A stretch of 64,000 nt of DNA. Origin: Actinomycetota bacterium. Lineage in GTDB: Bacteria; Actinomycetota; Acidimicrobiia; Acidimicrobiales; CADCSY01. Location of the stretch: NCBI GenBank assembly GCA_019347915.1, contig JAHWKL010000002.1, positions 2,425-66,424 of the forward strand. Direction: 5' to 3'. The notes below the pieces were generated by a model. The model did no database searches, was not told the origin of the DNA, and worked only from the letters and a program-made list of their open reading frames with translations. Positions within the stretch are counted from its first letter, which is position 1; every line of letters starts with the position of its first letter. This document shows positions 5,601 through 46,696 of the stretch, in pieces. The position numbers and the translations under genes are program-made.

Positions 5601-8600
5601 GCTGGTGAAGATGCGCCCGTCGTCGCCGAGGACGCCGTCGCTGCCGGTGCCGCCGGACATCCAGTCGTGGCCCCAGCCGCCGATCACGTCGTCGTCGCCG
5701 GCGTCGCCGAACACGACGTCGTTGCCGCCGCCGACGTAGACGGTGTCGTCACCCGTCTCGGCGTGGACCTCGTCGGCGCCCCAGATCTGGCTCGGGCCGG
5801 CGGCGGGGTCATTGAAGATCAGACCGCTGCCGGGCAGCGAGTCCGGGACGTTGGTCTGGCTCCCGCCGAACAGGTCGGGCCGACGGTCGGGGCCACCGGC
5901 GATGTAGTCGAGCAGCGTGACGGCCCGCACGATCAGCTTCAGGCCGCTCGCCGAGTAGTCGTCGTAGTTGAAGCGCAGGAAGCCACCGCTGTGGGCCACG
6001 CCGGTCGGCGCCGGCCCCGCCCCGACGACGAGCCGGTAGACGTTGCCGTTGTCGCCGACGATCGTGTCGGCGTCGCGGGCGTGGGCGTCGGTCGCCACGG
6101 CGCCGGTGGGCAGGGCGTCCGCGTTGCGGGCGATCTGGGTGCCGGCGCCGCCGAAGAGCAGGTCACCGACGTCGGGGCGCTGGGCGTCGACCACGAGCGA
6201 GAACAGGCTCGAGTTGCCGCCGATGACGTCGTCTTGGCCGAGGCCGCCGAAGACGACGTCGCGCCCGCCGCCACCCTCGATGTAGTCGTCGCCGTCGGTC
6301 GTGCGCTCCACCGAGGGCCGCACCCACAGGTCGCCGGCGGCGTCGCGGCCGGCTCCGAGCCTCTGGCCGCCGACGCGCCGGTCGATGTCGCCGTCGCCTT
6401 GGACGACGTCGTCGCCGAGCTGGGCGAAGATCGTGTCGTCACCGGCGCCACCGGCGACGTGGTCCCCACCGAAGCAGGTGCACGAGGTGTCCCAGGCGTG
6501 GTCCTCGAGCGTGATGGCGAAGTCGGCCCATGCCGTGGCGTGCCCTGAGGGGTCGAGCTGCCAGTACAGCCGGGCCGCCAGGTCGGTGCGGCCGTTGATC
6601 AGGGCGGTGCCGGCCTCCGCCAGCGTGGTGGCGTAGATCTGCGAGCCCTCGAGGGTGCGGAAGCGCGGGTTGCGGGAGTCGCCGAAGGTGGCGGTGCGGT
6701 CGAGGTCGACGTTGTCGCCGAAGACCAGGTCGCGGCCGTCGCCGCCGTCGAGGTCGTCGCCGGCGGTGCCGCCGATGAGCACGTCGTCGCCGCCCTCGGC
6801 GTAGATCGTGTCGCTGCCACCGAGGGCGTTGTCGGTGACCTCCACCTTGACGACGTGCAGGGTGTCGGCCCGCACGTCCCAGGTGGTCCGTCCGTGGTCG
6901 CCGAGGGCGATGTCGTCGCCGCCGCCGAGGCGGATGACGTCGCCCAACGCACCGCCGAGCACCACGTCGATGCCGCTGCCGGTGGTGATGGTGTCGGCGC
7001 CGCCTACGGTCGGATCGGTCGTGAGGAGCACGCCGGCCGACAGCGGCAGGTTGCCCCAGCGCCGCACCTCGGCGGGCAGGGCGTCGAAGCGCCCGTTGTC
7101 GCCGAGCACGATGTTGCGGCCGTTGCCGGCGTGGACGGTGTCGCCACCGACGCCGCCGAAGACCACGTCGTCGCCTTCGCCGGTGGTGACGGTGTCGTCG
7201 CCGCCGAGGGTGACGGCGGTGGTCCAGATGCGGTCGATGTCGGCGGGGTCGCCGTCGAGCAGCACCCAGTCGACGAAGCCGTGGTCGCCGAGGACGACGT
7301 CCCAGGTGTCGGTGCCGGAGGACGGTCGGGTGGCGTTCGTGGTGATGCCGTCGCCGGCGGCGCCGCCGAGCACGACGTCGCGACCGGTGCCGGTGGTGAT
7401 GGTGTCGGCGCCGCCGATGGTCGGGTCGACGGTGATGACGAGGCTCACGAGCCGCTCCACGCCGTCGGTCTTGTCACCGGGGCCACCGTGGCCGTACACC
7501 GCCGGGGCGACGGCCTCCAGGGCAGCCAGCTGGGTTGGAGTGGGGACGACGCCACCCAGGCCCGCCACCGGGATGCCGAGGGCGGCGTCGAACCAGAGAA
7601 GTCGTCCCCGGTCGCCGAAGACGATGTCGCCGCCGGTGCCGCCATGGATCGTGTCCGTGCCCTGACCACCGAAGACCACGAGTGGGAGGGTCGATGGCTC
7701 TGCGCTCACGAGATCGTCGTCGGTCGTGGAGGCGTGCGTGCCGGTGGACGAGAAGGAGTCCGTCCGGCTGTGGCGAACCTCGACGATGCCGTTCCCGGCG
7801 ACGAGGAGGCTGACCGTCTCGCCGTCGATCTCGAAGTCGGAGGCGTCCAGCACGACACCGTTGAGCAGGACGACGACCGAGTCGGTCGCCAGCAATCCGG
7901 CCACCTGCACGTCGCGCTCGGCTTCGGTGACGAAGCCGTGGGCGACCAAGGTCCGGTCGATGGCGACGACCGTCGCCTGCAGCACGCCGGCGACGTGGAC
8001 CGGGCTGACGGCCAGGAGCACGCCCAGGATGGGGTGCAGGACCGCCTGACCGGGCCCCAGGGCGGGGCTGGTGCCGATGAGCACGCTGTCGACGGTGTCC
8101 GCCGGCCTCGTGTCCGATCCACCGGAGGGCGCTCCGCCTGCGCCGGCGGGGACACCGACGACCTGCTGGTAGGGGCCCTGGGTGTCGAGGACGAAGAACC
8201 CGTCCTCGCCGGCCTGCAGATCGACGGTCACCAGGTCGTTGCCCAGACCAGTGTTGAGGCTGGTCACGGTGCGGACACCGGGCGCCTGGTGCGTGGCATC
8301 GACGGCGATGGTGTCGTTCCCGTGCCCGGCCCAGTAGGTGATGCCGTCGGCGAAGTTGCCGGCGGTGCGGTAGGTGATGCCGCGGCCGGCGAGGCCGACG
8401 AGGTAGATCTGGGCATCCGTGGCCAGTTCAGCATCCGCGGTGGCCCGGCCATCCTGGGCCAGCGCCGTGGTCCGCACCGAGGTGACGACGGCGTCCTTGC
8501 CGACCGTGTCCGCCTCGTCGCTGACCATCAGCAGGTGGCGCCCGTCACCGGCGTCGATGTTGAGGGTGCCGGCGAAGTGGTCGAGGGTGCCACCGAGGAA

Positions 8601-11600
8601 GTCGGTGTGCGGGCCGCCGGGCCGGAAGTCGGCCAGCGAGGAGATGAAGATGCGGTCGTCGCCGGCACCGAGCCGGATGTCGGTGCGGAACGTCGCGCCC
8701 GTGCCCTGGACGTTGAGGACGTGCGCCGCCGTGCCGAGACCTAAGGTGATGTCGAGGATCTCGAGGCGGTGGTACTGCAACCCGTCGGTGCGCAGGGCGA
8801 CGCCGGCGTTCCTGGTCGGGTCGAGGTCGAAGGCCTGCAACTGCGGCGCGCTCGCGCCCGCCAGCTCACCGTGGAAGCCGATGAGGAAGTCGTCGCCGAC
8901 CTGCCAGACCCAGACGCTTGGGGCGCAGTCGCTGGTACCGAGGTCGCCGCAGCCGGTCTCGTCCCAGTCCTGCTCGGTGACGACGTGGAAGGGGTCAGCC
9001 TCGCGGCTGGGCCCGTTGTAGTTCATGCCCAGCGGGAAGATGAGCGCCTGGACCGCCGTGGCCAGGTTCACAGAGGTGAGCGGCAGGATGCCTGCGGCCC
9101 CGTCGCCTGCCTGCGGGGCACCGACCCGGAACTGCAGAACGCCGTAGCCGGCCACCACGAGGGTGATGATCTCCGCGGTACCCGGCCGGAGCGCCCACAC
9201 CTGGTCCGTGCCGGGCGCCATGTCCAGCCCGGTCACCGACGTCGGGGTCACCGTCGCCCAGTCCGGATCCGGCTCGGCGCTGTCGTCCAGGTGGACGTCG
9301 TCGAAGCCGGCGCCGCCGTCGACGGTGAGCAGCGCTCGGATCTCCTCGACCGTCCGGCCACCGGACACGGTGATGCCCATCCGCACGGTGTCGTCGCCGT
9401 CGCCGCCGTAGACGACGGTGTGTCCGGCGACGGTCTCGACGTGCACGGTGTCGTCGCCGGCGCCGGTGTCGATCAGCGTCGTGCCGGCGTGCGTCGACTG
9501 GACCGTGAAGGTGTCGGCTCCGTAGCCGAGGAGGATCTCCAGGGCCTCGAGGTCGAGGTAGGTGATGCCACCCGGGAACAGGCGGCCGGCGACGAACAGG
9601 TCGGGTGCCATGCCCAGGCCGGTGATGCGCGTCGACGTCAGGTTCCCGATGTCGTCAGCCGGGCTGTCGTCGTTGCGGACGACCAGCCGGTCGACCTGCT
9701 TGGCCTCGTCGACACGGATGGTGGGCAGCACGGGCGGCTTCGGCGGTCCGGAGAGCTCGCCCGGCAACACGATCGGCAGGTAGCCGTCGAGGGAGGTGTT
9801 GAAGGCGGGGTCAGGGTCCAGTCCCCCGATGACGAACAGCGGCCCCTGGACCACATGGGCCCGCCGGGCGACCGGTGCGAAGGCCTGGAGCTCGCCGCCG
9901 TCCTTGACGCCGTCCACGACGGCGGTGACGACGACGAGCTTGTCGAGGTCCCAGTTGGTGTCGTCGAACTCGACGTAGTACCTCGTGTGACCGTCGACGG
10001 TCACACTCCCCACGTCGGCGCCGCTGAGCGTCACCTGGACGCGCTCGGCCTCCACGAACTCCTGGACGGCGTTGTCGAAGTACGCCGTCGGAGTGGGGTC
10101 GGGCGAGAGCCAGATCCGCACCGCTCCGCCTGGCGCCCGGGTGAGGCGGACGGTGTAGGTGTCGGTTGCTCCACCCTCGACCACACGGGTGGTGCCGTCG
10201 CTCTGGGCGATGATGACGCCCGGCGTGTCGCTGTCGGCGATGCCAGCGGAGACCCGTTCGATCTCGACCCCGTGGATGCCCACCACTGCGATCTGCGTGC
10301 CCTCGCCGATGGTCCCGGCACCCCAGGCATCCACGGTCGTGATGGTCCACGCCGTGTTCGATGCGATACGCCGGTACTCGCCGGGTCCGCTGCCGTCGAC
10401 GACGCGGACGATGGCACCGACCAGCCCGCCGCCGGCGGTGGGTAGCGACGAACCCGCCTGCGTCAGGGTGATCGTGCGCCCGGACACCGACTCGACGACG
10501 CCACCGATGAAGCCGAGCGCCGGCGGCGGCGCGTACCCGGTGATCACCCAGCTGGCGCCGGTGCCGGGGAGGACGTCCCACGGCGTCTCGGTGGCCACCA
10601 CCAGGCCGTCGGCGGTGACAAAGCTCTCGAAGATCCGGCGGTACTGACCCTCGCCGGTGCCGTCGTAGATGCGCAAGAGGTAGCCGCGCAGTGCGTTCAA
10701 GAGGAGCGACCCGGCCGGGAGCCCGGCGGTCGGGATCACGATCTCGTTCTTCTTGCCGGTCACGGCGAGACCGGCGCCACTCCACACCTCGCCGGTGCTG
10801 GTGATGGTCTGGGTGACGTAGCCGAAGTGGGGCCCCTCGACGACGCTGTCGTGGATCGCCTGCAACGTCACCGTCTTGGACGCCCAGTCCGTCGGCGTGA
10901 AGGTCAGGACCGAGCTGTCCACCACGGCCAGCTGCGGGCCGGGGTCGATCGTGATGACGATGGTGGTGAGCGGTGCGCGGTTGAGGCCGACGGTGTAGGT
11001 CGCGGTCGAACCGCTCATCGACACGACCGCCGCGTTCACGACGTAGGGCTCGACGACCCTCACGCCGCCCGCCGGGAGCTCGACGACCACTCCGACGGCG
11101 TTGCCATCGAGCACCCGCACGAGGGTATTGGCGACCTGGATGCCGTCGTAGCCGCCACCTTGGACCATGGTCTGGAGGACGACCGACCGCTCCCCCTCGG
11201 ACGAGTTGTCCTCGATGGCACGCACGAACACGGTCTGGGCCACGTCGTAGTCAGAGGCGTCGAACGACAGCGTTGCGGTGGTGCCCCAGACGACCCCGTC
11301 GACGGACAGCTCCACGCCGCGTGAGCGGGACGCCGAGGACAGGTTCACGGGCGGCGCCTGGATGGTGACCGTGACCGAGCTGGTCGGCACCATGCTCAGG
11401 TACACCGTGAACTGACCCTGGGCACCGATCGGCGCTCCGGTGACGCGGTCCTGTTCGCGAACCAGGAGCCCGCCGGTCGGCGGCATGATGACCACGGCGG
11501 GTGCATCGGCGTCGACGACCTCGGCGGCGATGCCGTCGATCGGCACGCCGTTCCAGCCCGCCGGGGCGTTCTCGACGGAGTGCGTGATGATCCCGCTGTG

Positions 11601-14600
11601 GCCGAGCAGGTCGTCGGCCTGCACCACCGGCGCGTGGTCGGCGACGACCACGGTGTCGCTCCCCAGCCCGCCGACGATCCGCGTCTCGACATTCGGGTTG
11701 GTGGACTGCACGTAGAACGAGTCGTCCCCCTCCATGCCGTCGATGACGAGTCGTTCGATGTTGAGGAAGCTGACGAAGCGCCCGGCGCCGTACACGCCGG
11801 TGTCGGTGACGACGAACGTGTCGCCGAACTCCGTGCCGACGATGATCACGGTGTCGTAGCCATCGCCGCCGTCGATCGCCACCGGGGCGTTCATGGCGTA
11901 CTGGACGAGGTCCCGGCCCACGCCGGAGCGGACCTTGGTGAGCTCGGAGTCGGCGACGAAGGTACGGATGACGAAGGTGTCGTCGCCGTCCTCGCCGTTG
12001 AGGGTGAGCACGCCCTTGTTGCGGAAGACGTCGAAGATGTCGTCGCCGGTGCCGCCGTTGATGGTCACCGGGTGCGACACGCCGTTGGTCAGCCAGCCGC
12101 GGGTGGAGGCGAAGAAGTTGGCGTCGAACTCGGGGTTGCCGGGCAGCCCGGTGCCGAAGGGGACTCCGAACTCGTGTCCGTTCGAGTCGTAGTCGGTGAG
12201 GATCTGGCCGACGTAGAAGCGGTCGTTGCCGCCGTCGCCGTTCACCGTCATGAACGACGAGGTGTCGTCGAAGGCGAAGGTGTCGTCGCCGTCACCGCCG
12301 TTGACGATCACGCCTCCGTTGATCGTCGCGCTGTACACGACCATCTCGGCATCCTGGAACATGCCGTCCCCGTCCGGCCGGGTGAGCTGGGCGATGAGGT
12401 CTCGGCGGAAGAGGAAGGTGTCGGCGGCGGGCGAGCCGGTGACGATGAGGACGTTGGAGTCCTGGTCGGGATTGGTCGTCTCCCCCACGCCCGGGGCGCG
12501 GAACCCGTCTTCCACGTCGACCCGGGTGTTGCCCTCGCCCCAGAGCCCGACGATGAAGTAGTCGGAGCCGTGGCCTCCACGCAGCACGAGGTGGCCGCCG
12601 AGGCCGTTCGGCTCACCGGCGGTCACGATGGGGTTGACGACGAGGATGTCGCCGCCCGCCTGACCGTCGACCGTCGTGTCGGCGGCGATCGTCTCGATCA
12701 TCACGACGTCGTCGCCGGCACCGGTGGCGATGGTCGTCGGACCCGGTGTCGAGTCGACGTTGACCACGTCGTCGCCCGCACCGAGCCCGACCGCCAGGGC
12801 GTCGAATCCGATGTAGCTGATCCAGCCGTCGGACATGGCCGTCGCACTGATGGTGGCGGTCTCGCCGGTCGGCGCCTCGAGCGGCGTTGAGCCGGGGTCG
12901 TGCGTGATCAGGTGGCTCCAGCCGGCCGCGCCTGCCAGCAGGCCGCGGTAGGCGATGACCCAGGTGTCCCCTGCCTTCGTGACGACGACCTTGCCGGCCA
13001 TGCCGGGCAGCGCTTCGAGGGCCTCGAGGACGTCCACGGCGGAGGCGTCGAAGTCGAGGTCCCACGTGGTGCCGGCGCCGGCGACGACCAGTCGGAAGCG
13101 GCCACCGATGGCGTTGTGCACCCGGACGACCTGGACCAGGTCGGGAAGGGCGAGACCTCCGCTCTGCAGACGGACGGACTCGTTGAACGCCATGCCCAGA
13201 CCGCTGATGCGGGTGGCGGTGACGACACCGATGCGGTCGTCGGCCACCGATGCGCCGGTGTCGTCGACCTGCAACGTGTCCGTGCCGCCGCCGGCGACGA
13301 GGTCGAGGTGCGCCTGGATGCCGGTGAGCACGCCCCCGGTCATGACCGGTGCGGTGCTGCCGACGCGCACGGTGTTGTCGCCGATTCCGAGGTCGATGGA
13401 CGTCGGGCCGTCGATGGTCTTGACGTTCACGCCGTCGCCGCCGTCGTTCGTCTGCAGGATGGTCCGGTAGCTGCGGACCGGTCCTGTCTCGCCGTGGGTG
13501 CTGTGGACGGTGAAGGTGTCGCTGCCCGACCCGAGGGCGATCCGCAGGTCCTCCAGCTCGGTGTAGATGATCCCCGCCGGCGAGAGTCCCAGTCCCTGGA
13601 GCAGGTCCTTCCAGAGCTGGCCGGCGGTGGCGCCGCTGCTGGCCAGGCTGTCACGGGTGTCGTCGACGGTGAGCAGGTCGAGCCCGCCACCACCGGTCAC
13701 GGTGAGCGCGGCGGCGATCTCGTTGACCGTTCCGCCGGCGTTGGACCACGCGGTGGCGGTGTGGGTGGCGGCGGCATTGCTGCCGACGGCGACGACGTCG
13801 TCACCCGAGCCGACGTCGATCAGGTGGGGGACGTCGATCTCGCGGACCGCCACCCGGTCGCCCCCGCTGAGCGTGCGGATCTCGACGAGCTCGACGTCGA
13901 GGTGGTCGACGGTGACGAGGTCGGAGCTGGCACCGGGCGCCCGCAACCGGACGTAGCCACGGCCACCTGCGGTCTCGACGACGAGGTCCTCGCGCTGGCT
14001 CGTACCCCGGACCTCGAGCCGGTCCGAGCCGCCGCCGTCGTCGACAGTGACACGGGCGCCGGCCGCGGCCCGCAGCTCGACCCGCACGACGTCGTCGCCG
14101 TCGCCGGCGGCGAGGGTGGCGTCGGCGGTCCAGGGTCGCGCCGAGCGGGCGCTGGAGCCGACGGCCACCGTGCCGTCGGCGTCACCCACGAGGAAGGTGT
14201 TGGCCCGGGCGTCGCCGGTCAGCTGGGCCTGCTCGAAGATGCCCTTGATGTCCTCGGCGATGCCGCCGGCGGCGAAGTCCACGCTGCCGGTGACGGCGCC
14301 GACCACGAAGAGGTTGTCGTAGAGGCCGAACGAGACGAACCCGCTCGCCGGGCTGTAGTCGCCGAGGCCCTCGACGAGGGTGTCGTTGCCGCCGGCGTCG
14401 TGGAAGGCGTCGAGCCCGGGGCCACCGGTGAAGGTGTCGTCGCCGTCGCCGCCGTCGAGGACGTCGTTGAAGCGGGAGCCGACCAGGGTGTCGTCGCCGT
14501 CGCCGCCCCGCAGCGTCACCGCCACCCGGTCCTCGCTCAGGCCGTAGGCGTCGATGGTGTCGTTCCCGTTGCCGGACTCGATGACCAGCCGGTCGCCCTC

Positions 14601-17600
14601 GCCCCGGACGGTCTGGCCCACCCACACGGTGTAGCTGCCGCTGCGGGCCACCTTCACTTCGCTGCCGGTGCGCCCGGTCGACGAGGCCTGCCCCTCGAAT
14701 GTGACCGTGTAGGCGTCGGCGCCGTTCGAGCCCCGGATGGTGATGGTGTCGCCGGCGGCGTCAGGATCGATCCGAACGTCGGGCACCTCGCGGGCGAACG
14801 TGGCCCCGTCGATGGTGACGGTCTCGGTGCGGGTGCCGTTCACCGTGACCCGACGGCCGAGGTCGATCGTGAGGTTCTGGACGCCGGAGCTGCTGCCGAG
14901 GTCCTCGACCACGAACGTGTCGGCGCCGGCCCGCCCGTCGATGAAGAAGCTCTCGACCGTCGAGACGTTGCGGTTGGTGCCGTTGAGCGCGAGGCCGACC
15001 ACGTTGGCGCTGGGCGAGGAGATGACCAGCGTGTCGGGGTTGGCCGAGAGCGTCAGGTAGAGGCTGTCGGTGCCGGCACCGCCGGTGATGGTCGGGGCCT
15101 GGGCGCCGTCGATGACGACGAAGAGGACGTCGTTGCCTTCCTCGCCGTCGAACTGGCCCGCCACACCCTCGAGCACGTCGTCGCCGCCGCCGCCCTTGAG
15201 CGTGTCGGTCGGGCTGCCACCGATGAGGTGGTCGTTGCCGGAGCCGCCGTGCAGCGTCGCCGTCCCCGAGCCCCGGTGCACCAACATGTCGTCGTCGCCG
15301 TCGCCGTTCACGGTGGCGTCGCCGGGGCCGGTGTGCTCGATGTAGTCGTTCCCGGCTCCGCCAGAGAGCGTGCTGTCGCTGGCGGTGCCGGCGTAGGTGA
15401 TCACGTCGTCGCCCTCGCCGCCGGCGATGAACACCGGCACCTTCACCGAGTGGGCGATGACGATGGTGTCGTTGCCGTCGCCGAAGTCGGCGTGGATCTC
15501 GTTGACGTGCTCGTAGGTGTTGCTGCGGCCGAAGGCGGTCACCTTGATGGTGGCGCTGGTGTCCGTGCCGCCGACCTGCTCCACGAGGAACATTTCCTCG
15601 ATGTCGTCGGTGGCGATGTTCCTCGCCGTCCGCCTCGTCGAGGATCCCGCGTTCAACGTCAGCTGGGTGTGGCCCGAGTCCCACGTGCGGGTGCCGTCGA
15701 AGCCCGCCAGGTACGTGGGCGGCGGGAACTGGAGGTAGCCGATGGTGAAGCGGGCGGTCTTGGTGACGCCGATCCCGAGCACGGTGACGCGGACCTTGAC
15801 GGTGAGGACGATCTCGACCTTGCCCTCCGGGCCGGCGGTTGCGGTGTCGAGGTCGAACGAGAAGCTCAGGCCCACGCCGGCCAGCGTGATGCCGAAGGCC
15901 CGCACCTTCACGCTGGCCGAGCCGCTGAGGTGGAACACGTAGGTGTCGTGGGGACCGGATGATCCGCAGTTGGTGAGCTCGGAGCGCACGCAGGAGGTGA
16001 CCCGGAACGAGAAGTCACCGCGGAGGCCGAAGCTGTCGGAGCCGAGCTGCATGCGCCCGGCCAGCGAGAGGTCGAAGTTGCCCCTGGAGTCGAGGTAGAT
16101 CGAACCGCTGAGGCGGGCGAGGCCGAAGAAGTCGACCGACGCGTTGGCGTTGAACGACCACTCGCTTCCCGACACGACGATCCGCAGGCCGGCGTCGAAG
16201 TTGAACACCTCGAGGATGCTGACCTTGCCACTCAGGTCGAGGACGAAGGTCTTGGCGCCGATGCCGAGGAGCCGGGCGTTGCTGGTGTTGATCTGCAGCG
16301 TTCCGGCCGCCTCGATGGAGAACACCGCGGCGTCGGCCTTGGCGCTGATGTTCAGCGAGAGGGCGAAGCCCGGGTTGGGCCCGCCGACCACCGCCGCCCC
16401 GCCGTCGGCCCGGAACTGCAGGCCACCGAGATCGAAGCCGATCCCGAACAGCAGCTGGAAGCCGGTGGGCGAGACGCTGACCTCGACGAAGCCGTCGGCC
16501 TCGGTGCCGAGGAGCTGCATCGATCCCTCGATGCGCAGGAGGAAGCCCGGGTTCACCGTGGTCGATCCCAGCGTCTGGACTCGCCCGGTGGTGTTGAGCG
16601 CGACGATTGCGCCGACGTCGAGACCGAGTCCGATCTTGTCGCCGAAGTTCGCGTCCAGTTCGACCTGGACCCGGGCGACCAGGCCTTGCGAGTTGATCCG
16701 GAACCCGGAGTCGATGAGGCTCACGCCCCCGATCGGGTCGAGGTCGAGCGAGCCGTTCACCACCAGCTCGATGCCGGGGTTGCCGCCGGCCAGCTCGAGG
16801 CGGAACATCACCGAGCCGGTGACCGTGAGCCGCTCGGCGATGATGAGCAGACCCGACATCTCGAGCTTGAACCCGCCGACCGTCTCGATCGTCTCCGCCT
16901 GGGCGACGAGGTTGCCGGCGGCGTTGCGCTTGAAGCCGTCGAAGACCTTGACCCCGGACTCCAGTGTCCGGGTGTTGACGGCGAAGGTCTGGATCTTCTG
17001 GGCGGTACTGAAGGTGTTGATCTCGAGCAGGAACTGGCCGCTGAAGACGACACCCGGGATCTGGTTGCTGCCGAGGGTGAGCTGCACGCGGCCGACCACG
17101 CCCGTCTTCGCCCCCGCGTAGACGGCGAGGTTGAGCACACCGGTGAGCGATCCCAGGAATGGGATGGTGGTGCCGACGGCGCCGTCGACCTCGAGGTAGG
17201 CGAACCCGGACGGGTCGACGGCGGCCGTGATCCCGATGTAGCCGTTGAGGGTGAAGGCGCCGCCGATGCTGATCTGGGCTTGCACGATGGCCTTGACGTA
17301 GACCTCGCCACCCGGCGCGCCGTTGGGGTCGCGCCGGCCGTCGACGCCCGGTGCCGACTTGAAGACGGTGATGGTGGTCGGCTCCCCGGGCCGCAGCAGC
17401 GGCAGGAAGGCCGGTGGGATGGTGAAGGTCTTGTCCTTCAGCGTGGTGTTGAACATCACCGTGACGCTGCCGGTGGCGCTGAACAGGCTGCCGACGTCGG
17501 GGAGGCCGATGCCGCCGCCGGCGGCCACGGTGAAGGTGCCGGCGATGCCGTCGGTGGAGATGATCAGCAGGCCGGTGACCGAGCCGTAGTTGAGCCGGGC

Positions 17601-20600
17601 ATTGCCGCTGCCGAAGGAGAGCTCGCCGGTCAGGTACATCTGGAACGTCGGCGTCGCCGACGCCTCGATGCTGAGGAAGAACCCGCCCTGGACCCGCAGC
17701 AGCTCGGTGGTGGTGCCCGGCACCGACACGATCGCCTGGCCCACCAGCTCGATGGCGAAGCTGTACGGGTTCAGCGTGAACGTGCGGACCAGGTCGGTGC
17801 CGCCGGCGCCGAGGCCCCGCAGTGTGAGGGTCTCGACCTTGGTCTGCGCCGTGAGGTTCACCTGCAGCGTGCCCTTTGCGAACAGCTTCAGGCCGTAGGG
17901 CTCCAGCGCCGAGAAGTTGGTCTCGAGGGTGGCCACGCCCCAGAACTGCGGGATCTCCGAGAGGCCGTCGCCCATGTCCAGCACGAACCGGCCGGCGGTG
18001 GCCCCGACGGTGCCGAGCTTGATGATGGACAGCTGGCCGGCGAAGGTCAGGGTGAACAGCCGCCGGGCCGAGTCGATCTCCAGGATGACCTCAGCCTTCA
18101 GGTCGAGGAGGGGCTCGTCCAGCCCGGGAGCCTGCAGCAGGATGCCGCCGGAGAGCTCGATGAAGAAGGAGGTGCCCTGGGTGATGAGCTTGAACGAGCC
18201 CGACCCGGCGGCGGCGCGGTTGCCGGCGGAGTCGTTCCAGGCGCCGGCCACGAACGCCACGTTCACGGTGCCGGCGGTGAGCGTGCCGGTGTAGATGTAG
18301 CGGAAGGTCGTGGCGTCGATCCGGTGGACCGAGACGAACGACAGCGCCTCGCTGCCGGCGCCGGTGAGGACCAGCTGGCCGCCGGCGAGGATGCTGGCCA
18401 CGTCGACGGTGGTGCCCGGCACCGGCGTGAACACCACGTCGAGCCACGTGCGGGGGCCGACGGTCGACTCGTCGACCGACGACTCGACGGTGGCGGCACT
18501 GGCGAACACTGCGGTCCACGCCGTGCCGCCGGTGTCGGCCCAGCTCCCGTCGATGAACGACACGACGAGGCTGCCCCCCGTGTGCCCGGTGAAGAAGTAC
18601 CGGTACGTACCGGTCGCAGCGTCGACGAGCACCGGCACGCCGAGCACCGCCAGCTCGACCCCCGTCGAGGTGGTGATGGTGATCTCGGCGCCGGCGTCGA
18701 GCACCGTGGCGGCGTCCACCGCAGACCCGTCGAACGAGGCGAAGGTGACGTCGACGTGGCCCCGGCCGTTGAAGGCGTCGGTGCTGAGGACCCCGACCGG
18801 GTTCTTCAGTGCTGCGATCGGGACGGCAACGTCGAACGACTCGCTCTCGCTGTGGTTGCGCTGTTCGCCGGTGTCGGCGAAGGAGCCCGCCACAAACGTG
18901 ATGCTGTAGCGGCCGACCGAGAGCGTGGCGTCGAAGCCGTAGCGGTAGGTGTCGCTCAGGCCCACCCGGACCGGTGCCGACAGCGGGATGAGGTTGCCGG
19001 CGGCGTCGCGCAGGTAGATCTCGTCGCCGTCGATGGTGGCGTGGTCGATGGCGAAGCCGGAGGAAGGGCTGAAGCGGATCTCGATGTAGGCCCGCCCGTT
19101 GAGCAGGTCGCGGCCGATGGCGGCGCCGGCGAGCGGGACGACGGTCTCGGGCGTGTCGTCGTCGGCCGGGATGGTGGTCACGACGTCGGCGGCGGCGCCG
19201 GTGACGAGGAACGACTGCGTCACGCTGAGGCCAACAGGGGGCCCGCGGATCGGGTTGTCGCCCAGCTCGTCGATCTGGATGACCACGTCGACCGGGCCGG
19301 CCACGAACGAGCCCTGGAGCAGGTAGCGGTAGGTGGTGCCACCGAGGTGGATGGGGTTGCTTCCGGAGGGCACCGTGACCGTCGATCCACCGAAGCCGCC
19401 GATGGTGATCACCACGTCGTTGATCGTGCCCAGGTCGAGGATGCTGCCCGCGGCGGGGACGAAGGTCACGTCGATGAACGTCTGATCGACGGTCGGCACG
19501 GTCACCGGCACCGCTCCGGGCGGGCCCGGCTGCGTGCCGGTGTCGTCCTCGGCCGTCCAACTGGTGCTGCTGGCGGCGAGCGACACCGTGACGTCGAGGT
19601 CGGCGGCGCCGGCGGTCTCGACGATCACCGGGACCAGGAACCGGTTGGTGTCCCCGATCTGGGTGACCGGGCGGGTCTCGTCCAGGGTGACGACCCACCC
19701 CGATCCGAAGACGAGCTGGAGGCCAGGGTGGCTCGCTTCGGCGTCGACGAACCCGATGCCGCCGTAGATGGTCCTCGCCGCCTTCTCGGTGGGCAGCGGC
19801 ACCCCGCTCAGCGTGAGCACCGAGTTGCCGCCGCCCGAGATGCCGGCGACGGTCCAGGTCCCCGCCAGCCCACCTATGAGCACGACCTGCCCAACCCGGA
19901 AGCCCTGCGCGACCCAGTCGACGGGACCGGTCACCGTGCCGCCGCTCCCGGTCGAGGCCAAGGTGAACGCGGCCGACACCACGAGGGCGTCCGTCACCGA
20001 GTCGGGGTCGAGCTCGAAGCCGGCGGGCACGCCGTTGCTCTCGGCCGACGGGAAGGTGACGGTGACGGTGCCCGGCGTGTCGCCGGCGGCGATCGTGCCG
20101 CCGGAGACGGCGCCGGTGACGAAGTCGCCGATCAGCGACCAGCTGCGGGCGATGAAGGTGAGGGTCACCGTGTCGACCGGCGAGGCGAAGCTGCCAGTGA
20201 GCCAGAACAGGAAGCTGAGCGAGCCGTCCACCGTGCCCGGCGTCCCCGAGATCAGCGTCGGCGCCCGGGACGAGTCCAGCTGGACCGAGCTCAGGCCCGG
20301 CCCGGACAGGACGAACTCCGGCTGGAGGTCGGTGATCGACGCCAGGTCGAGGGCGTAGCCCGTCGGCGGTGTGAAGCTGACCTCGATCCAGCCCCGACCG
20401 TTCAGCACGTTCACGTCGATGCTGGAGCCCGGCGTCGGGTCACTGATCACGCCGGTGGCGGCCACCACGGTGAAGCTCAGCGTGGCGGCGGTGTTCCCGG
20501 CGCCGGGCGTGGTGCCGGCCTCGCTGGTCACGTCGGCGTTCTCGAACGTGCCGGCCGGGAAGTCGAGCTGGACGACCCCCATGTCGACGGCGCCGGCACC

Positions 20601-23600
20601 GAGGTCGTAGCGGAACATGCTGACGCCCTCGAGGCTGCTGGCGGCGGCGAGCAGCTCGCCGTCGGTCGGGTTGCCGCCGAGGTCCTCGACGGACAGGACG
20701 ACCACCTCGGTCTCGGTCGTCTCCACCGGCGGTGTGTAGCGGTACACGACCTTCCGGCTGGCGCCGCTACCCACCACCTGGAGCGGGACGGCCTTCAGGC
20801 CGTCGGCGGTCTGCACCAGGACCAGCGGCACGGGCGACCCGCCGACGGTCCGGCTGGTGCCGTTGATGGTCAGGGCGAACTCGCCGCCGGGGTCGAGGAT
20901 CGAGAGATGGTCCAGGCTCGCTCCCGACGGTGCCGTGAACACGACGTCGAGGTAGGGGTTGCCGCTTGCCGGGTTCACCGCGCCGACGTCGATGGTCCCG
21001 CCGTTGGTGACCCCACCGCCGAGGCCGGCGGTGGGCGCCGTGGACGCCGCCGCCGGGTCGCCGGCGTCGACGACGTCGAAGATGACCTCCTCGCCGGACG
21101 AGTTCCGGAAGCCCATCTTCAGCTTGCCGTAGATGGACAGCAGGCGGACCTGGTCGGGGATGTCGGCGAGGAAGAGGATGACGACGTCGCCGGTGGCGAC
21201 CCGTGACAGGTCGGCGTAGAGGCGGCCGGAGATCGAGATGTTGTTGGCGGCGAAGTTCAGCGTGCCGCTGACGAGGATCTTGCCGTCGGTGGAGATCTTC
21301 ACGAGCACGACGCCGTTGAACACGGCCTCCGAGGTGTAGATCGAGTAGATCTTGGCCGACCCGGTGATGACCATCGGTGACGTGAAGGCGGCGAGGAAGC
21401 CGTCGCCGGCGTTCCCGGCGGCGACGGCGGCGGCCTGGCGGGCGACCTGCTGCTGCAGGGACGCCAGCCACTGGTCCGCCGTCTGGGCGGTGGGCAGCGC
21501 GAACGCCGACGACCGGAGGGCGAAGGGGTCGTCGATGGATGGCAGCGTCTTGAAGAACTCGACGCCGGCGGCGAAGTCGTTGATGGTCAGGCCGGAGATG
21601 GGCTCGAGGAGGATGCCGCCGGGGACCTCGACGTTGATGAACACCTGGAGCGGGCCGAGCTCGGACAGGCCGAGGCGGATGGTGAAGCCGGCCATGCCGG
21701 CCATCGAGAACCCGCCCTGGAGGCCGAGGTAGAAGAGCCGCTGGTGCACCGGCGTGGTGTTGTCGAACGTGCCGATGACGTTGTAGTTGCTGTCCAGCTT
21801 CAGGATGCCGCCGATCAGGCCGGCGTCGATCTCGCCGCCGAACATCGAGCCCTTCACCTGCACGGCGATGGCATCGATGCCGATGATGGGGAACTTGCCC
21901 TGAGCCAGCAGCAACGGCTGGATGCGCACCCCGCGGATGGAGCCGCTGAACTCGAGGCCCTCGAGGCCCTGGATGGCGGTGACCGAGGCCGACAGCGTGA
22001 GGACGAAGTCCTCGGGCGCGCTCTCGATGTCGGCCCACTGGATGCCGATCTCGTCGATGCGGACGGGCAGGAACGATGGCCACTGGAACGAGTCGCCGGT
22101 CGCCGATCCGACCGAGAGGAAGACCCCGAACCCGGGCCGGGTCTGGAAGGTGCCGTCACCCAGGAACTGGAAGTTGCGGGCCTGGCCGCTGAGCGCCAGC
22201 GAACCGATGTTCACGGTGGCGCCGATCGACTGGAACGACAGCATCACGTCGGTCGTGCCGGCGGCGCCGGTGTCGAGACGGAGGTCGCGCGCCCGCAGGG
22301 TGACGTACGTGCCGAGCTCGAGCTCGAGCGTGTCGATGGTGAGCTGGAAGGCGTCGACCCTGCCCTGGCTGAAGGTGAGGGCGATGCGGAACGCCTCGGT
22401 GTCGGGCGTGCCGTCGGGGCGCTTGTCGTCGGCCGTCTGCCGGTCGAGCAGCGTGGCCGAGAAGGCCTTCCCCGGGAAGAGCTTGGCCCCGCCGGTGGCG
22501 ATGTAGACGTTGCCGGTGAAGGCGCCGAAGGCGTCCCCGGCGCCGATGGTGACGGTCAGGCCGGAGATGCCGATCCGGAGGTCGTCGAGCTCCAGGATGC
22601 CGGCGAAGGAGACCTTCTCGTCCGTGGTGCTCGTGGTCAGGCCGTTCCCCGGCTGCGTGGGTGGGAGGCCGTAGGCCAGCTCGACGGTGCCGAGGCTGAA
22701 GCCGTTGCCCCGCACCACGAGGCCCGGGATGATGCCGGGCGACAGCTCGTCGTCGTTGGTGAGCGGCTGGCCCAGGTCGTTGGTGGCGATGTTCGACCGG
22801 TCGGACGGGTCGTACGGCCGGATGGTGCCGGTGACCCCGAAGCTCGGGAAGGTGATCGTGGCGCTGTTGACCTTGACCAGCTCCTGGTCGACCGGGGCGA
22901 GCGGGTCGTAGGAGACGACGATGCCGCCGGCGACCAGGTCGGCGACGCCGGGGATGTGGGCCCCCAGCGATGCGGCTCGCAGGCCCCACTTGCCCGTGGG
23001 CTCCACCCAGAAGTTGCCGCTGAGGAGCCCGAAGACGTCGACGGCGAGGTCGAAGGTGCCGAGGATCCCGATCAGGTCGACCGTCACCCCGCTGGCCGTC
23101 TGCGCGGTTTCGCCGGCGCTCGGGTTCGACGGCGTCCCGCCGAAGGCGAGGCTGGCACGGTCGACGCCCACGGCGATGGTGAGCACGACCATGCCGTCGT
23201 CGTAGCCGAAGTCGGCCAAACCGATGCTCGGGCCCTGGAGCGACAGCGGTCCGAGAGCGATGGCGCCGCCGGTGGTCGCCGCCCCGGGCGCCGAGGCGTC
23301 GATGGTGAAGGCGGCGGTCAGGTCCTGGACGTTGGCGTTGTCGTCGCTCGTCCCGTCCGTCGCACCCTCGCTGAACCACGTGCCGTCGAAGAGGACGTTG
23401 ACGGCGCCGGGACCGAACATGGCGGTGGCGTTGGCGGCGTCGGCGTCCTCGAGGAAGTAGCGGTAGGTGACGGTGGTGGCGGTGTCGGCCCGGCCACTGA
23501 TGAGCAGCGGCACCCCGATGATGGTCGGCCGGTCGCTGACCCGGAGGAGGTCGAGGACGCCGGTACCGGTGAGCTTGAACGGTGCGGTGGCGACCGCGAG

Positions 23601-26600
23601 CGACGACTTCTTGATCGGGGTGCCGTCGAGGCTGGTGTAGGTGATGTCGAGGTAGCGCTGGGCGTTGATCTGCGCCGCGGTGATCGCTCCACCGTTGGTC
23701 GGGTTGGCCAGGGTGGCGATCGGGCCCGGCTTCGGATGGGGGTTCGTCTCCGTCGGCGTGACGAGGAAGAACCGTTCCTCCTCGACCATCGACGTGGAGC
23801 CGCCCAGGTCGCTGAAGCCGCCGGCGAGGAACCGGACGGTGACCACGCCAGACGTCGGCATGTCGCCGGTGACCGCGTAGCGCCAGGTGTTCGCAACCGC
23901 CGTCGGCACGGTGGCGACGGTGAAGCCGACGGCGGAGCCGTTGACCAGGATCTCGATCTCGGCGCCGGGGTCGGTGATGGTCTCGGGACGGAGACCGACA
24001 CCGTTGACGTCGTTGAAGACCACGTCGACGTACCCGGGGAAGGACGCCGGGGTGATGGTCGTGTTGCCAAGCGGTGCCGCCAGGTCGGCCGTCGGGAACA
24101 GCGTGGGCTTGGCCGGGTCGGCGGTCGGCGCCTCGCTTCCCTGCGGGGGGAAGAGGTCGAACCCGTCGACGCGGAAGTTGTTGAGGCGGAAGCCGGTCAG
24201 GGGCGAGATGGTGAAGGACCCGAAGCCGGCGAGGCGGGCGATGTCGGTGTCACCGATGGTGATCAGCACCGCCGCCTGGGCCATCGTGACGTCGAGCGTG
24301 CCGTTGGGCTGGCGGGTCAGGCCCAGCGTGCCGGTGAGCTGGAAGACGCCGGCAACGGCGATGACGACGTTGCTGGCCACGAACGAGAACCGCCCGCCGG
24401 CGAGCGCCGTTGCGTGGTTCGGCACCGTGATGGAACTGGTGGACGTGTTGACCTCGAAGGTCACGTCGCCGGACACGGCGAGGCCGTCGAGCCCGACGAA
24501 GGCCAGCGTGCCGGTGGCCCGGAGGGCGTAGCCGGTACCCGTGCCGGGGGTCTGGAACCCGACGGACGCCCCGGTGATGCGGACGCCGATGGCGTCGGGG
24601 TTGAGGTCACCGGTGCTGAGCCATCCGGGGCCCTTGCCGATGAAGATCTCCAGGTTGCTGCCGCTGAAGGTGCCGCCGCCGACGGCGAAGTCGCCGCGGA
24701 TCTCGAGGATGCCGCCGAAGTCGAAGTCGAGGTTCTGGATCCGGAAGAAGAAGGTCGGTGATTCGGCGAGGTCGAGGACGACCTCCGTGTCCCCCACGTC
24801 GATGGTCTGGTTCACCTGCACGCCGGTGGTGTTGATGGAGAAGCCGACGTTGGCGTCGAGCGGGAAGCCGGTGGCTGCTGTGACCACCCGCCCGGAGAAC
24901 AGGCCGGCGACGCCGCCCGAGGTGGTCTTGGGACCGGTGGAGGTCCTGTCCTCCGTCGTGTAGGCCCCGGGCGGGAAGATGACCACGGCACCCTGGATGC
25001 TCCCGAGGCCGGGGCTGTCGTCTCCGACCTCGTCGGCCGCCAGCGACCCGTTGGCCAGGGCGATGCGGGTGACCTGTGAGCCGGTGGGACCGACCCGCTC
25101 GAAGGCGACGTCGGCGCGGACGTCGACACCGGCGATGGTCAGAACGACGTCCTCGGCCGCGACCCGCAGGTACGGGCCCTTGGGCAGGGCGAGCACCCGG
25201 ACGTTGGGGACGATCGGGGGACGGTTGCCGTTGGCGTTCCACGTGACCGTGTAGCCCCCGGTCACCGCCACCACCGTGACGTTGTCGCCGGAGCCGTACA
25301 GCGCCTCGATGGCGGCGTCGACCGTGGCGGCGTCGGCACCGACGACCTCGATGGCGTGCGAGATCTCGTGGGCGTCGATCTTCCCGTTGCCGTTCACGTC
25401 GAGGGCGAGGGTGAAGGTGCCGGCGGTGACGCCGACGGAGACCGTCTGCACCTCGGCGGCGCTGGCCGACCCCTGGGTGTCGGTGACCACGTCCACGCCG
25501 GCGAACTGGATGGTCTCGTTCACGGGGACGGCCAGGTTGTTCACCTGGAGGGTCAGGCGGGCGTCGAAGGAGATGGGAAGGTTCTTCAGCTCGACGTTGC
25601 CGGTGATCTCGCCGGCGACGCCGGCCGGGGTGAGGACGAAGGCGCCGGCGCCGTCCGTCAGGTGCAAGCCGACGTCGTCGGTGTCGCCGGGATCGTTGGC
25701 ATCGCCGAGGAACAGCTCCACCTCGGTGAAGGCCACCCGCACCACCTTGGTGCCGGCGGCCGTCGTGCGCTGTTCGAACACCACCACGGCCTGGAGCTGC
25801 TGGCCCATGACGGTGACGCTGATGGGCGAGCCGAGGGAGCCGGCCTGGATCCGCAGGTAGGGCCCGGCGGGCAGCGTGGCGGTGGCGGGCGTCTGCTCCG
25901 TCGTGATGTAGTCGACCGTCTGCTGCGCCGTGGTGTTGTTGATCTGGACGGCGGTGGCACCGCTGAGCGAGAAGGTGCTGGTGAGCGCCGGGAGCGTGAG
26001 GGTGGCCGGGATGTTCGCCGCCACCCCCTGGGGCGTGATCTTGATGGAGCCGGTCGGGATGTGGACCGGGACGAACGTCGTGGTGCCGTTGCCCAGGGCC
26101 AGGGTGACGTCGGTCAGCTCGATGGTGACGGTCTGGGTCGACGGGTCCTTGCGGAAGGCGAAGCCGCCGGTGAGCCGCTGACCGGCCACCTCGAGGGTCA
26201 CACCGGTCCCGCTGACCTCGAGCCCGGGCTGGATGACGTCGTCTCCGACGGTCCGTGCCGTGGTGAGGGTGTTGATGGCGATGCTGAACGTGCCGGACAG
26301 CACGACACCGGGGATGTCCACGGCGACGGTGGCGGTCAGGCGACCGGCGACGCCGCCGGCGGTCGTGGCGGTGGCGCCGACCATCACGAGCTCACCCGAG
26401 CCGTCGGTGACGAGCACGATGTCCCGCTCGGGGGTGCCGATGCGCAGGCTGACGTTGGCGAAGGCGACCCGCAGGTCGTACACCGGCGTCGCCGGCGTCA
26501 GGATGGAGCCGTCGGCGGCGAGCCGGGTGCGGCGCTCGACCGAGAGGTCGGCGGTGACGCGCTGATCGGCCATCACGAGCGACAGGCCCGTGACCGAGAC

Positions 26601-29600
26601 CTTGACGTAGGGCCCGACCGGCAAGGTGAGGGTGGTGGTGGTCCCGCCGCCGACGAACTGCTCGTTCACGGCGAGCGGCATCACCTTGGCGCCGACCGTC
26701 TGCTGCAGCTGGTTGATCTCCACGGTGACCGTGGCGCTCGCCGAGCCGAACGTCCCGCCGAGGAGGAGGCTGGCCGTGCCGCTGATGCGGCCGGCGAAGC
26801 CGTTCGGCGTGATGAGCAGGAAGGCCGACCCGTCGCTGACGTGCACGCCGATGTCGTCGGCGTCACCGGGTTCACCGGGTGCGCCGACGAAGAGCTTCAG
26901 CTGCGACACGCCGATCCGCACGATCTGCTGGTCGTCGGTGGTGTCGAGGACGCCGTCGGCGCCGGCGCTTTGGACCTGCTCGAACAGGAACACGCCCTGG
27001 ATGCCCTGGGCGAAGGCGGTGACGCTCGCCAGCGTGGTGGAGTCGCCGAGCTGGAGCCGCACGAACCGCCCGGCGGGCAGGTCGAGGCCGAGCGTCGTGT
27101 CGACGACGGCGGTCGGGGTGGTGTTGATCTGGAGGCGGACGGCGAGCGAGCCGAGCGTGAGGGCCAGGTCGTCGAGCCCGACGAGGGAGATCGTCCCGCC
27201 CACGTCGGCCGCCACCCCGGTCGGCTGCAACAGCAGGCTGCCCATCCCGCCGGTGATCTTGACGCCCCGGTCGTCAGTCGTGTCGGTCAGCGTGGCCCCG
27301 TCGTCGCCGAGGAACAGCTCGCCGTCGGAGATCGACACCTTGACGATGCGGGTGGTGCCGGTGGTGACCTGCTCGAAGGAGAACGTCCCCGACAGCCGTT
27401 GCCCGCCGATGGCGAGGCTGACGCCGGTCCCCCGCAGGCGCAGGTACGGGCTGGGCCCGGCGGTGTCGAGCTCGAGGGCCAGCGTGCCGGACAATCCGAC
27501 GCCGGGGACATGGAGGGCGACCGTGCCCGACAGGCTGCCGGAGATCCCCGCAGCGGCGATCGTCAGGTTGCCGGCACCGTTGGTCAGGGTCACGAGGTCG
27601 GTGGTGCCGGTGCCCAGGCGCAGGGTGATGGCCGACAGCACGAGCCTGGTCGTGGCGGTCGGGGCGGATCCGACCTGTTCGAGGGCGATGTTGCCGCTGA
27701 GCGTCTGGCCGAGGACGGCCAGTTGGACGTTGTTGCCCGAGACCCGCAGGAAGGGACCGGCAGGCAGGTCCAGCGAGACGGTGGTGCCGGCCAGGGCGAC
27801 CGACTCGGTCACCTGCCGGGAGGTGCGGTTGAGGGCCAGGCCGAAGTCGCCGGCGAGCGCCACGCCGGTCGGGAGCACCGAACCGAGGTTGACGGCGCCC
27901 TGCAGGGTGCCGGCCAGGCCGTCAGGTGCGAGGACGAGGATGCCCCCCACGCCAGTGAGCAGCCCGGTGGTCCCGCCGAGCGACAGGCTGCCGCCGGTCA
28001 CCGCGATCACCGTGCGCTTCTGGCCGGCGGCGTTGGTGGCCGTCTGGATGGTGAACGACGCCTGCAGCGTGGGGCCGCCGGTGCCGAAGGTGAGGGTGAC
28101 GTTCTCGCCGAGGAAGCGCACGTAGGGACCGGCCGGCAGCCGGGTTCCGTCGGGCAGGACGACGGCGGTGGTGGCGTTGTTGACCTGGAGCGTGAACGTG
28201 CCGGTGATGCCGACACCGGCACCGAACGAGAGCGCGGATGCGACGGTGAGCTCGCCGGCCAGACCGGCCGGCGCCACCGCCAGCTCACCGTTGAGCGTGA
28301 CCGTCCCCAGCCCCTCGCCGAGGTCGAGGAGCAGGTTGGTGACGATGATCTCGACGGTGCGGGAGCCGTCGGCGGCCGTCTCCTGCTCGAAGGAGACGTC
28401 GCCGGTGAGCGAGATGCCGGCGACGGTCAGGGTCACGGCCGTGCCGGTGATCTTCAGGTACGGGCCGGCGGGGAGGTCGACGGTCAGGACGCCGATGCCG
28501 CGGGAGGTTCCGAAGGCGGCGCCCGTGCCCTTGCGCCAGGTCGCGGCGCCGGTGCCGGCCGAGGTCACGAGGTCGGCGACGGTGTCGCCGTCGAGGTCGC
28601 CGACCCCGATGGCCACCACCGTCCCGATCCCCAACGCCGAGGCGGCGGAGAAGCCGGCCCATGTCTCGTCACCCGGGTTGAGGGCGACGTCGACGCCGGT
28701 ACCGGTGGTGCGGACGAGGTCGAGGGTGCCGTTGCCGTCGACGTCGGCGAGGACCACCGCCGTGCTGCCGGAGGTGCCCGGCGCGGTGGCCGCGGTGAAG
28801 GTCCCGTCGCCGGCGCCGAGGTGCAGGCTGTCCGCGGTACCCGAGAGGCCGGAGCCGACGACGAGGTCGAGGTGGCCGTCGTCGTCGACGTCACCGAGGG
28901 CGATGACCGCGGCGGCAGAGCCGACACCGGCGAGCACCGAGCCCGTCCCGACGCCGTTCCACTCCCCCGTGCCGCCGTCGACGCCGCTGTTCAGGTACCG
29001 GGTGACGTCGGAGCCGGCCGCCACCAGCACGTCGCCGAAGCCGTCGCCGTCGAGGTCGCCGACGGCGATCGACCGGGCCGAGGATCCGAGGTCGGGGCCG
29101 CTGAGGACCTTGAACAGGCCGGTGCCGTCGTTGAGGTAGACGAGCGTGGTGGCGCCGGAGCGGCCGACGACGAGGTCGGGCCGGGTGTCGCCGTCGAGGT
29201 CGTCCAGCGCCACAGCGGTCACGCTGTCGGCGTCGGGCCCGACGAGGATGGCCGGCACGACGTCGAAGGGGTCGCCCACGCCGTCGTTGAGGTAGAGGAG
29301 CACACCGGCGGCGGTGCCGAGGACGAGGTCGGGGCGGGTGTCGCCGTTGACGTCGGCGACGGCGGCCGAGGTGGTGGTGCCGGGCTGCAGGCCGAACCCG
29401 ATGGTGTCGAGCACCGCGCCGTCGGTGGTCGGGCGGGTGTTGACGGCCAGCGCCAGCGTGCCGGCGAGCGAGGCGCCCGGGATGGTGATGGCGACGGTGC
29501 CGGACAGCGTGCCCGCCAGTCCTCCGACCTTCGGCCCGGTGCCGTCGGGGTCGCCCAGGAGGAAGAAGCCGGTGCCACCGGTCAGGGTGACGAGGCGGGT

Positions 29601-46178: not shown

Positions 46179-46696
46179 TGCCCTCCCCTCTCGATCGCCG
46201 AGTGGCCACTCCGACGCGCGCGTCTCCACGAGCAACGCAGATGTGGGCTTCGCACGGAGGGTAAGAAGCGGCTTGTCCCGCCGCCCAGGGGCAGTTGTCC
46301 CTTTCTGCCCGGGACATTTCGGCTACCGGACGTCGCGGTGGGGTCTCGACCCGGGGTTCAGGGATGCAGCTCCGGTCGAGGTTGCGGCGCCGAGGTCTCG
46401 ACCGTGAGCACAGCCTTCTTCCCATCTGGGCGAAGGCGGGACTTCAACGCTCCAGCTCGACTCCAAGCCGAGATGCAGGTGCCTTGACCACTACATGAAC
46501 GCTGTGGCATGTGGCGAGGCGTGGGTGCAGGAGCCAGCTCGACACGTGGCTCGCCGCCTGCCAGCTCGTGCCAGCGACCACAAGCGGTGGATCCCTGTCG
46601 GAATGCAGCCATGCGGTCGCTCCGAACGGTCCGCCAAGTAGGTTGAGAGTCGCCCTCAGGCTGATGCTGCCCGCAAGGATGAGGAGAAGTATCGTC

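Follow-up and report, generated by a model that had tools for sequence, protein, structure and literature searches.

A giant open reading frame (ORF) in the 64,000-nucleotide window studied here, taken from contig JAHWKL010000002.1 of an Actinomycetota bacterium of the order Acidimicrobiales, carries a stretch of about 830 residues, here called the cassette, which is a real and conserved domain that belongs to no recognised family and whose predicted fold has no solved counterpart. Judged by profile comparison, the cassette appears to comprise some seven diverged copies of the six-strand repeat that forms the array of this protein. We favour, with a probability of about one half, the reading that it is the terminal segment of this repeat array and forms a rigid beta rod in which the hydrophobic face is buried. 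The initial annotation, which was made by a model from the letters of the window, had marked positions 15700-18190 as a non-repetitive beta-rich domain between Ig (immunoglobulin)-like modules and an RTX region, and its coordinates and flanks were right. The parts of the giant gene that are needed to follow the argument are these:

2499..46235, minus strand: the giant ORF of 14,578 amino acids (aa), with a signal-peptide-like N-terminus and a GC content at third codon positions (GC3) of 0.945; it contains the cassette.
24201..41405, minus strand: the array, 41 copies of a module of about 112 aa (aa 1611-7345), with consensus ...LPAGPYLRVSGTG...GVAGRLSGTVALAVPGVSLSGTVSLRVNTT.
18192..19523, minus strand: Ig-like modules N-terminal to the cassette (aa 8905-9348), about 100-115 aa each, unrelated to the cassette units.
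15708..18191, minus strand: the conserved beta cassette (aa 9349-10176), from FKLITQG... to ...FTIGYLQFPPP, with boundaries common to its homologues.
15171..15272, minus strand: the first Pfam RTX nonapeptide block C-terminal to the cassette (aa 10322-10355).

On the minus strand the flagged stretch corresponds to aa 9349-10179 of the giant ORF, carries the motif SCVRSELTNCG, and has GC contents of 0.62, 0.46 and 0.96 at the three codon positions (GC3 0.957); the plus-strand ORFs that overlap it have the composition of antisense shadows. Its amino acid composition (G 13.8%, L 12.3%, T 8.8%, V 8.8%, A 8.4%, S 7.3%, F 7.0% and I 5.8%) agrees with the richness in F, L, I, V, G, S and T that had been described. 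In homologues the cassette extends from FKLITQG...SFFIELSGG, or more generally FxLIxxxxSFFIELSGG, to FTIGYLQFPxP. The Ig-like modules before it share a recurring signature, TYRYxFTG...VxFxAGxWxD, and the array consensus can be written in a longer form as ...LPAGPYLRVSGTGVTLTVAGQSLTGDVAFEQ...GVAGRLSGTVALAVPGVSLSGTVSLRVNTT.

An AlphaFold2 model of the whole cassette, built with 33 family sequences, is all-beta with a predicted local distance difference test score (pLDDT) of 83.5 and a predicted template modelling score (pTM) of 0.60, and a separate run on the C-terminal 392 residues is likewise all-beta (pLDDT 87.9, pTM 0.75). These pTM values fit a defined monomeric fold. In both models six strands of about 12 residues, joined by turns of 2-5 residues, are followed by a linker of 6-45 residues that is often a short hairpin; the pattern is predicted to occur six times before a four-strand cap, giving seven units in all. 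Each of the units U1-U5 ends in an N-T-T-like motif (h-x-h-N-T-T type), and the linkers behind the units are short and variable. From the N-terminus, the parts of the cassette are:

17844..18176, minus strand: unit U1 (aa 9354-9464), six strands, ending LQVNLT; the most conserved unit.
17769..17843, minus strand: linker L1 (aa 9465-9489), a short beta-hairpin, with insertions of about 90 aa in some homologues.
17436..17768, minus strand: unit U2 (aa 9490-9600), six strands, ending VMFNTT.
17310..17435, minus strand: linker L2 (aa 9601-9642), with the motif F-x-IP-x-x-F-LPLL...SAPG-x-DG.
17004..17309, minus strand: unit U3 (aa 9643-9744), six strands, ending LLEINTF.
16881..17003, minus strand: linker L3 (aa 9745-9785), four short strands, poorly conserved.
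16581..16880, minus strand: unit U4 (aa 9786-9885), six strands, ending VALNTTG; the best match to the array module.
16275..16553, minus strand: unit U5 (aa 9895-9987), six strands, ending LQINTS.
15969..16256, minus strand: unit U6 (aa 9994-10089), six strands, more diverged.
15951..15995, minus strand: variable loop with the Cys pair SCVRSELTNCG (aa 10081-10095), low pLDDT; neither Cys is conserved in the family.
15714..15950, minus strand: unit U7, the C-terminal cap (aa 10096-10174), four long strands, ending FTIGYLQFPxP.

The strands are strongly amphipathic, as the initial annotation had proposed. In the 40 long strands the two faces differ sharply in mean Kyte-Doolittle hydropathy, which is +2.6 for one and -1.0 for the other. 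The 251 residues of the hydrophobic face include 59 L, 42 V, 38 F, 33 G, 30 I and 27 A and just two Tyr and one Trp, while the polar face is variable and made up mainly of S, G, T, D, E, R, Q and N; conservation is 0.63 on the hydrophobic face against 0.45 on the polar one. Nearly every strand has a glycine in the middle of its hydrophobic face (for example G447, G459 and G480, or G556 and G567). By the hairpin registers these glycines are direct cross-strand neighbours and so make up a glycine stripe, and they rank among the most conserved positions of the family.

In order to compare the units with each other, the family alignment was cut at the AlphaFold2 unit boundaries and the pieces were aligned pairwise with hhalign, next to reversed controls. 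Units U1-U5 are mutually similar, with scores of 28-80; nine of the ten pairs score 36-80 and align end to end and in register, and the reversed controls score 14-35. The strongest pairs are U2-U4 (80.5, reversed control 22.9), U4-U5 (77.3, control 27.6), U3-U4 (76.8, control 30.8) and U1-U4 (71.0, control 35.4), and the weakest are U2-U3 (28.4, control 22.1) and U1-U3 (36.2, control 14.3). The sixth unit is more weakly related, scoring 45 with U4, and for U7 no similarity to the other units was detectable by hhalign. When the whole domain was aligned to itself, a shift by one unit scored 135 against 81 for the reversed-sequence control, and shifts by two and three units were within noise. The description of the stretch as aperiodic is thus contradicted by its seven predicted units and by the mutual similarity of the first five.

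The claim that the stretch matches no repeat type elsewhere in the protein fares no better. A profile made from the 41 array copies alone was compared by hhalign with the family-derived unit profiles, and it matches four of them in register: U2 (94.9% probability, E 4e-8), U3 (94.8%, E 5e-8), U4 (95.4%, E 1.7e-8) and U5 (90.9%, E 1e-6), with scores of 37-46 against 14-22 in reversed controls. With U1, U6 and U7 the match of the array profile is not significant. By profile comparison the supposedly unique domain thus resolves into diverged copies of the array module, an outcome that the initial annotation, which put the module at 120 aa, had itself counted as a refutation. By BLAST alone the cassette does look nearly unique, since within the giant protein this gives one off-diagonal match, a short one of 48.6% identity between aa ~9600-9750 and aa 6628 in the array. 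The proposed homology of units and array rests on the profile-profile comparison, together with a shared unit length, a mid-strand xGx and a terminal N-T-T. The Ig-like modules were considered as another source of the units and rejected, as an Ig-module profile matches the cassette with a probability of 0.3%; between the array profile and the Ig-like module the probability is 0.1% (both by hhalign).

The family itself was rightly described as unrecognised. Pfam gives no match inside aa 9349-10179 even at E ≤ 10, NCBIfam has none in the cassette, and searches of the PDB chain sequences, by phmmer with the single sequence and separately with a family profile, returned nothing meaningful. The array module likewise has no relative in Pfam, NCBIfam or the PDB, the PDB search with the array profile being empty, and a word-indexed search with that profile found just five short matches. 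Foldseek, which the initial annotation had advised, gave no fold-level match, all template modelling (TM) scores being ≤ 0.34, and since the values are so low we regard its matches as local strand-hairpin resemblance only. An RTX beta-roll is not indicated, as there is no GGxGxDxUx (Pfam HemolysinCabind) match within aa 9349-10179 at E ≤ 10. An RHS/YD-repeat shell was also considered and set aside: there is no Pfam RHS/YD match, and no Tc-toxin, teneurin or Rhs structure is among the top 50 Foldseek matches.

The initial annotation had further suggested that the stretch could be the functional core of the protein, for example a ligand-interacting structure, and had asked for its conservation to be profiled across orthologues. 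Identity to five orthologues is 39-75% in units 1-3 (49-75% in unit 1), above the 34-57% of the three adjacent Ig modules and the 36-44% of the start of the RTX region. Among 166 family sequences, 90 positions are conserved at ≥85%. Gly accounts for 44 of these, and the others are occupied by L, F, P, N, T, W, A, I, V and Y and in one case by Glu; His, Asp, Lys, Arg, Ser and Cys are absent from the set. Such a set, made up mostly of Gly, Leu, Phe, Pro and Asn, is the signature of a constraint on the fold and not of an active or metal-binding site, and the face that is conserved is the hydrophobic one. An enzyme active site in the cassette was therefore rejected, since no residues of catalytic type are conserved. 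The two cysteines (aa 10082 and aa 10090) are, as annotated, the only ones in the flagged stretch. They lie, however, in the least conserved loop, of low pLDDT, between U6 and U7 and are absent in homologues, and a disulfide-dependent functional site was also rejected on this ground. Nothing points to a catalytic or ligand-binding core, and the conservation implies a structural constraint.

Linker L2, together with the flanking NTT and Y298, contains many near-invariant residues, namely N248, T249, T250, F256, P259, F262, P281, G285 and Y298, in the motif NTT..D..F.IP..FLPLL.PG.PT....SAPG.DG....GEVY. In distant relatives an IPxxF ... GAP..DG ... GPY element, read from the sequences, returns with each duplicated block.

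Relatives of the cassette are numerous. A word-indexed search found 39 of them at 40-63% identity, all fragments of large genes in metagenome-assembled genomes (MAGs) without Pfam annotation, and an exhaustive profile search found 1,219 representatives of clusters at 50% identity with E ≤ 1e-3, 362 of them with E ≤ 1e-30. Many of these representatives are proteins of 3,000-7,800 aa. A scan of species-representative genomes detected full-length cassettes (residues 1-830) in Actinomycetota, Planctomycetota, Verrucomicrobiota, Desulfobacterota-type genomes and an alphaproteobacterial MAG, five phyla at the least. The hosts include monoderms as well as diderms, and most are monoderm Actinomycetota. 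The actinobacterial hosts comprise Oryzobacter telluris, many Microbacterium species, Sinomonas mesophila, Rhodoglobus, Arachnia, Acidimicrobiia and Solirubrobacteraceae, and the diderm hosts the Olavius Delta-3 symbiont, Desulfobacteraceae, Limisphaerales, Gemmataceae, Planctomycetaceae and Rhodospirillaceae; Akkermansiaceae gave a partial match to residues 475-830.

The position of the cassette is fixed. The order of Ig-like modules, cassette and RTX region is kept in orthologues from several phyla, and the giant protein is collinear with its relatives over aa ~7015-10600. In 14 of the 16 genomes that were checked, the frame has no stop for about 1000 aa to either side, and GGxGxD motifs start 70-105 aa downstream. 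The other two, Gemmataceae and Ilumatobacteraceae MAGs (L027 and L035), have in-frame stops on both sides of the cassette, which may be frameshifts, assembly errors or the result of a wrongly assumed frame. The length of the cassette varies. In the homologue P0133 the blocks 446-542 and 141-275 are repeated as a pair three times before a terminal 444-830, and some other homologues carry the L1 insertions listed above. These block duplications and linker insertions indicate a modular, length-tolerant scaffold with exposed linkers.

A structural role would be in keeping with these properties. We propose that the 41 array units build an extracellular fibre stabilised by Ca2+, and that the cassette is its specialised final segment, which would couple the Ig-like stalk to the Ca2+-binding RTX part. 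The sheet would bury its hydrophobic face within the monomer and form a rigid rod or plate roughly 10-20 nm long. This might be done in one of two ways. The sheet could bend along the glycine stripe into a beta-taco-like form with two or three inward side chains per arm, or successive six-strand units could stack face to face as a staggered two-layer ribbon. With an even number of strands the chain comes back to the rim from which it set out, and in the second packing this would account both for the linker after every sixth strand and for the two-unit duplication in P0133. The linker loops, and L2 above all, would then be the only plausible sites of display or interaction. Mean-field direct coupling analysis of the 166 family sequences (about 80 per column) gave local, gap-driven signals alone and no information on the packing of the units.

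The closest known kind of structure is the extender repeat of giant RTX-type surface proteins, although the cassette is a different, unannotated repeat type. The giant RTX adhesins LapA, SiiE and MpIBP are described as having stalks of BIg-like extender repeats. Like these, the cassette is made of all-beta modules in tandem, belongs to a secreted, Ca2+-binding protein of very large size, lies N-terminal to the RTX part, varies in copy number among homologues and probably has a structural role. Unlike them, it is composed of six-strand amphipathic meanders with one fully hydrophobic face and a glycine stripe instead of separate Ig domains, it lacks relatives in Pfam and the PDB, and it occurs in monoderm Actinomycetota behind an N-terminal signal peptide, with no type I secretion system genes in the window. 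Two preprints report beta-sheet superstructures in giant extracellular proteins, known from prediction only. By description these resemble the cassette in their long, regular antiparallel sheets, their hydrophobic surface, their regularly spaced outward elements and their lack of a solved relative, but they are thousands of residues long and the cassette has about 830.

Several observations weigh against a purely structural rod at the end of the array. Burial of the hydrophobic face is inferred and not seen. Linker L2 is strongly conserved for no known reason. Conservation of the cassette exceeds that of the adjacent Ig modules, of the start of the RTX region and of the array matches at BLAST level, and this, with the fixed position of the cassette, suggests that it is more than a generic spacer. 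A hidden Markov model (HMM) of the array copies alone, run on the raw sequence, gives in the cassette only noise-level scores of 4-6 bits, the best score on the reversed sequence being 5.3 bits; its matches (aa 9514-9598, 9653-9741 and 9789-9883) reach 4.6-6.1 bits with i-E values of about 1e-3. Finally, the top Foldseek matches are lipid-contacting sheets, namely the beta-belt of ApoB100 (E 1e-6, probability 1.0), LptD and porins.

The last point bears on an alternative that we think unlikely but the strongest of those considered, in which the sheet is an open trough whose aliphatic concave face would bind lipids or other hydrophobic compounds, or would lie against a membrane or a hydrophobic surface, in the manner of the AsmA, TamB and VPS13 grooves or the ApoB100 belt. 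One face of the cassette is almost purely L, V, F, I and A around a central glycine stripe, and a preprint predicts hydrophobic clefts in other giant proteins. With AsmA/TamB (the DUF490 beta-taco) and the repeating beta-groove (RBG) proteins the cassette shares an elongated antiparallel sheet, a repeated strand unit and an amphipathic character with one hydrophobic face, which is the inner one in those proteins and the more conserved one in the cassette. It differs from them in its shorter strands and in being extracellular instead of a bridge between membranes, and no AsmA, DUF490/TamB or Chorein_N signature was found in it with Pfam or NCBIfam. The RBG unit has five strands and a crossing loop, whereas the unit of the cassette has six strands and a hairpin linker. 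With the ApoB100 beta-belt (PDB 9ea7, 9e9r and 9bde) it has in common a meander of amphipathic strands of about 11-12 residues in a long ribbon, yet the TM scores are 0.19-0.32, the identity 8-9% and the root-mean-square deviation 13-36 Å, the organism and context are unrelated, and the likeness is local, as for all Foldseek matches. Strands of 12 residues would also leave just two or three inward side chains per arm and little room for a cavity, and there are no lipid-related genes nearby. Should the hydrophobic face nevertheless prove to be an open groove, this family would constitute a novel type of carrier for hydrophobic molecules outside the cell.

Somewhat less probable still is an interface for oligomerisation, in which at least two copies of the giant protein would pair through their exposed hydrophobic faces, so that the fibres are bundled as dimers or sheets. 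The conserved hydrophobic face is extensive and the cassette has a fixed place in the architecture, and a preprint on Chlorochromatium, in which hydrophobic clefts are predicted in giant proteins, models dimerisation through such clefts. Against this, the models of the monomer are already confident (pTM 0.60-0.75), and the 41 related array units would share the property, so that it would not be specific to the cassette. We consider it improbable that the groove is continuous over the cassette and all 41 array units, for more than 100 nm along an extracellular fibre, and carries or sequesters lipids or hydrophobic molecules between the cell and a surface, prey or partner; such a structure would be a bacterial, cell-external analogue of the bridge-like lipid-transfer proteins or the ApoB belt. 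A transmembrane beta-barrel or pore module inserting into the outer membrane of the producer or into a target membrane is very improbable, for although the strands are amphipathic and of membrane-spanning length and LptD, usher (PapC/FimD), porin, VDAC and SlpA barrels are among the Foldseek matches, the TM score to every barrel is ≤ 0.30, Tyr and Trp make up 3 of the 251 residues of the hydrophobic face with no aromatic girdle, the turns have 2-5 residues on either rim, apart from those behind every sixth strand, and do not alternate between long and short, most hosts are monoderm, and the homologous 41 tandem array units cannot all be barrels.

Whichever of these readings applies, a large family built around the repeat, with its cassette of 830 residues, lies outside all domain databases and solved structures. 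With the unit defined as here, annotators can approach sequence that is labelled 'hypothetical' and amounts to tens of kilobases per genome, and the non-repetitive look of such giant genes in BLAST comparisons is explained. The fibre could be studied in cultured hosts, namely Microbacterium spp., Sinomonas mesophila and Oryzobacter telluris.

Some further features of the giant gene and its surroundings were noted. The ORF is listed from a TTG, and its first Met is codon 29, directly before the signal-peptide-like segment RRLRRATALLAVVSLVVSLLAVVPTSAAEA (46026-46235, minus strand). At the other end, a convergent gene for a right-handed beta-helix protein (Pfam Beta_helix/NosD; 1297-2628, plus strand) overlaps the last ~45 codons (2499-2628, minus strand), and the C-terminal ~100 aa look low-complexity, so that the true end may be earlier. 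The neighbouring genes are an ABC sugar transporter, an alpha/beta hydrolase, a MOSC gene and a glyoxalase gene, and no type I secretion genes were found in the window flanks of the giant ORF. Blocks of FG-GAP repeats break the 41-copy array at about aa 4600-5000 and 5600-5900. N-x-S/T sequons are enriched, with 56 in the array against 26 ± 4.7 expected from shuffles and 8 in the cassette against 4.2 ± 2.0, because of the NTT and NET motifs at the ends of units; no glycosyltransferase gene was seen in the window. Between the array and the Ig-like modules, aa ~7346-8400 (21036-24200, minus strand) form a conserved central region with the motif FQWPSFLPVRIDEIGIQW at aa 8052, which is collinear in giant homologues of several phyla, gave no match in Pfam and NCBIfam searches and makes a second conserved domain without annotation. 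A metzincin-type HExxHxxGxxH motif stands at each end of the giant protein, HELGHALGLEH at aa 359 (45129-45161, minus strand) and HEVGHVLGLDH at aa 14394 (3024-3056, minus strand), each with a weak match to Pfam Peptidase_M10, and the homologues P0047 and P0111 have a similar motif near their N-termini.

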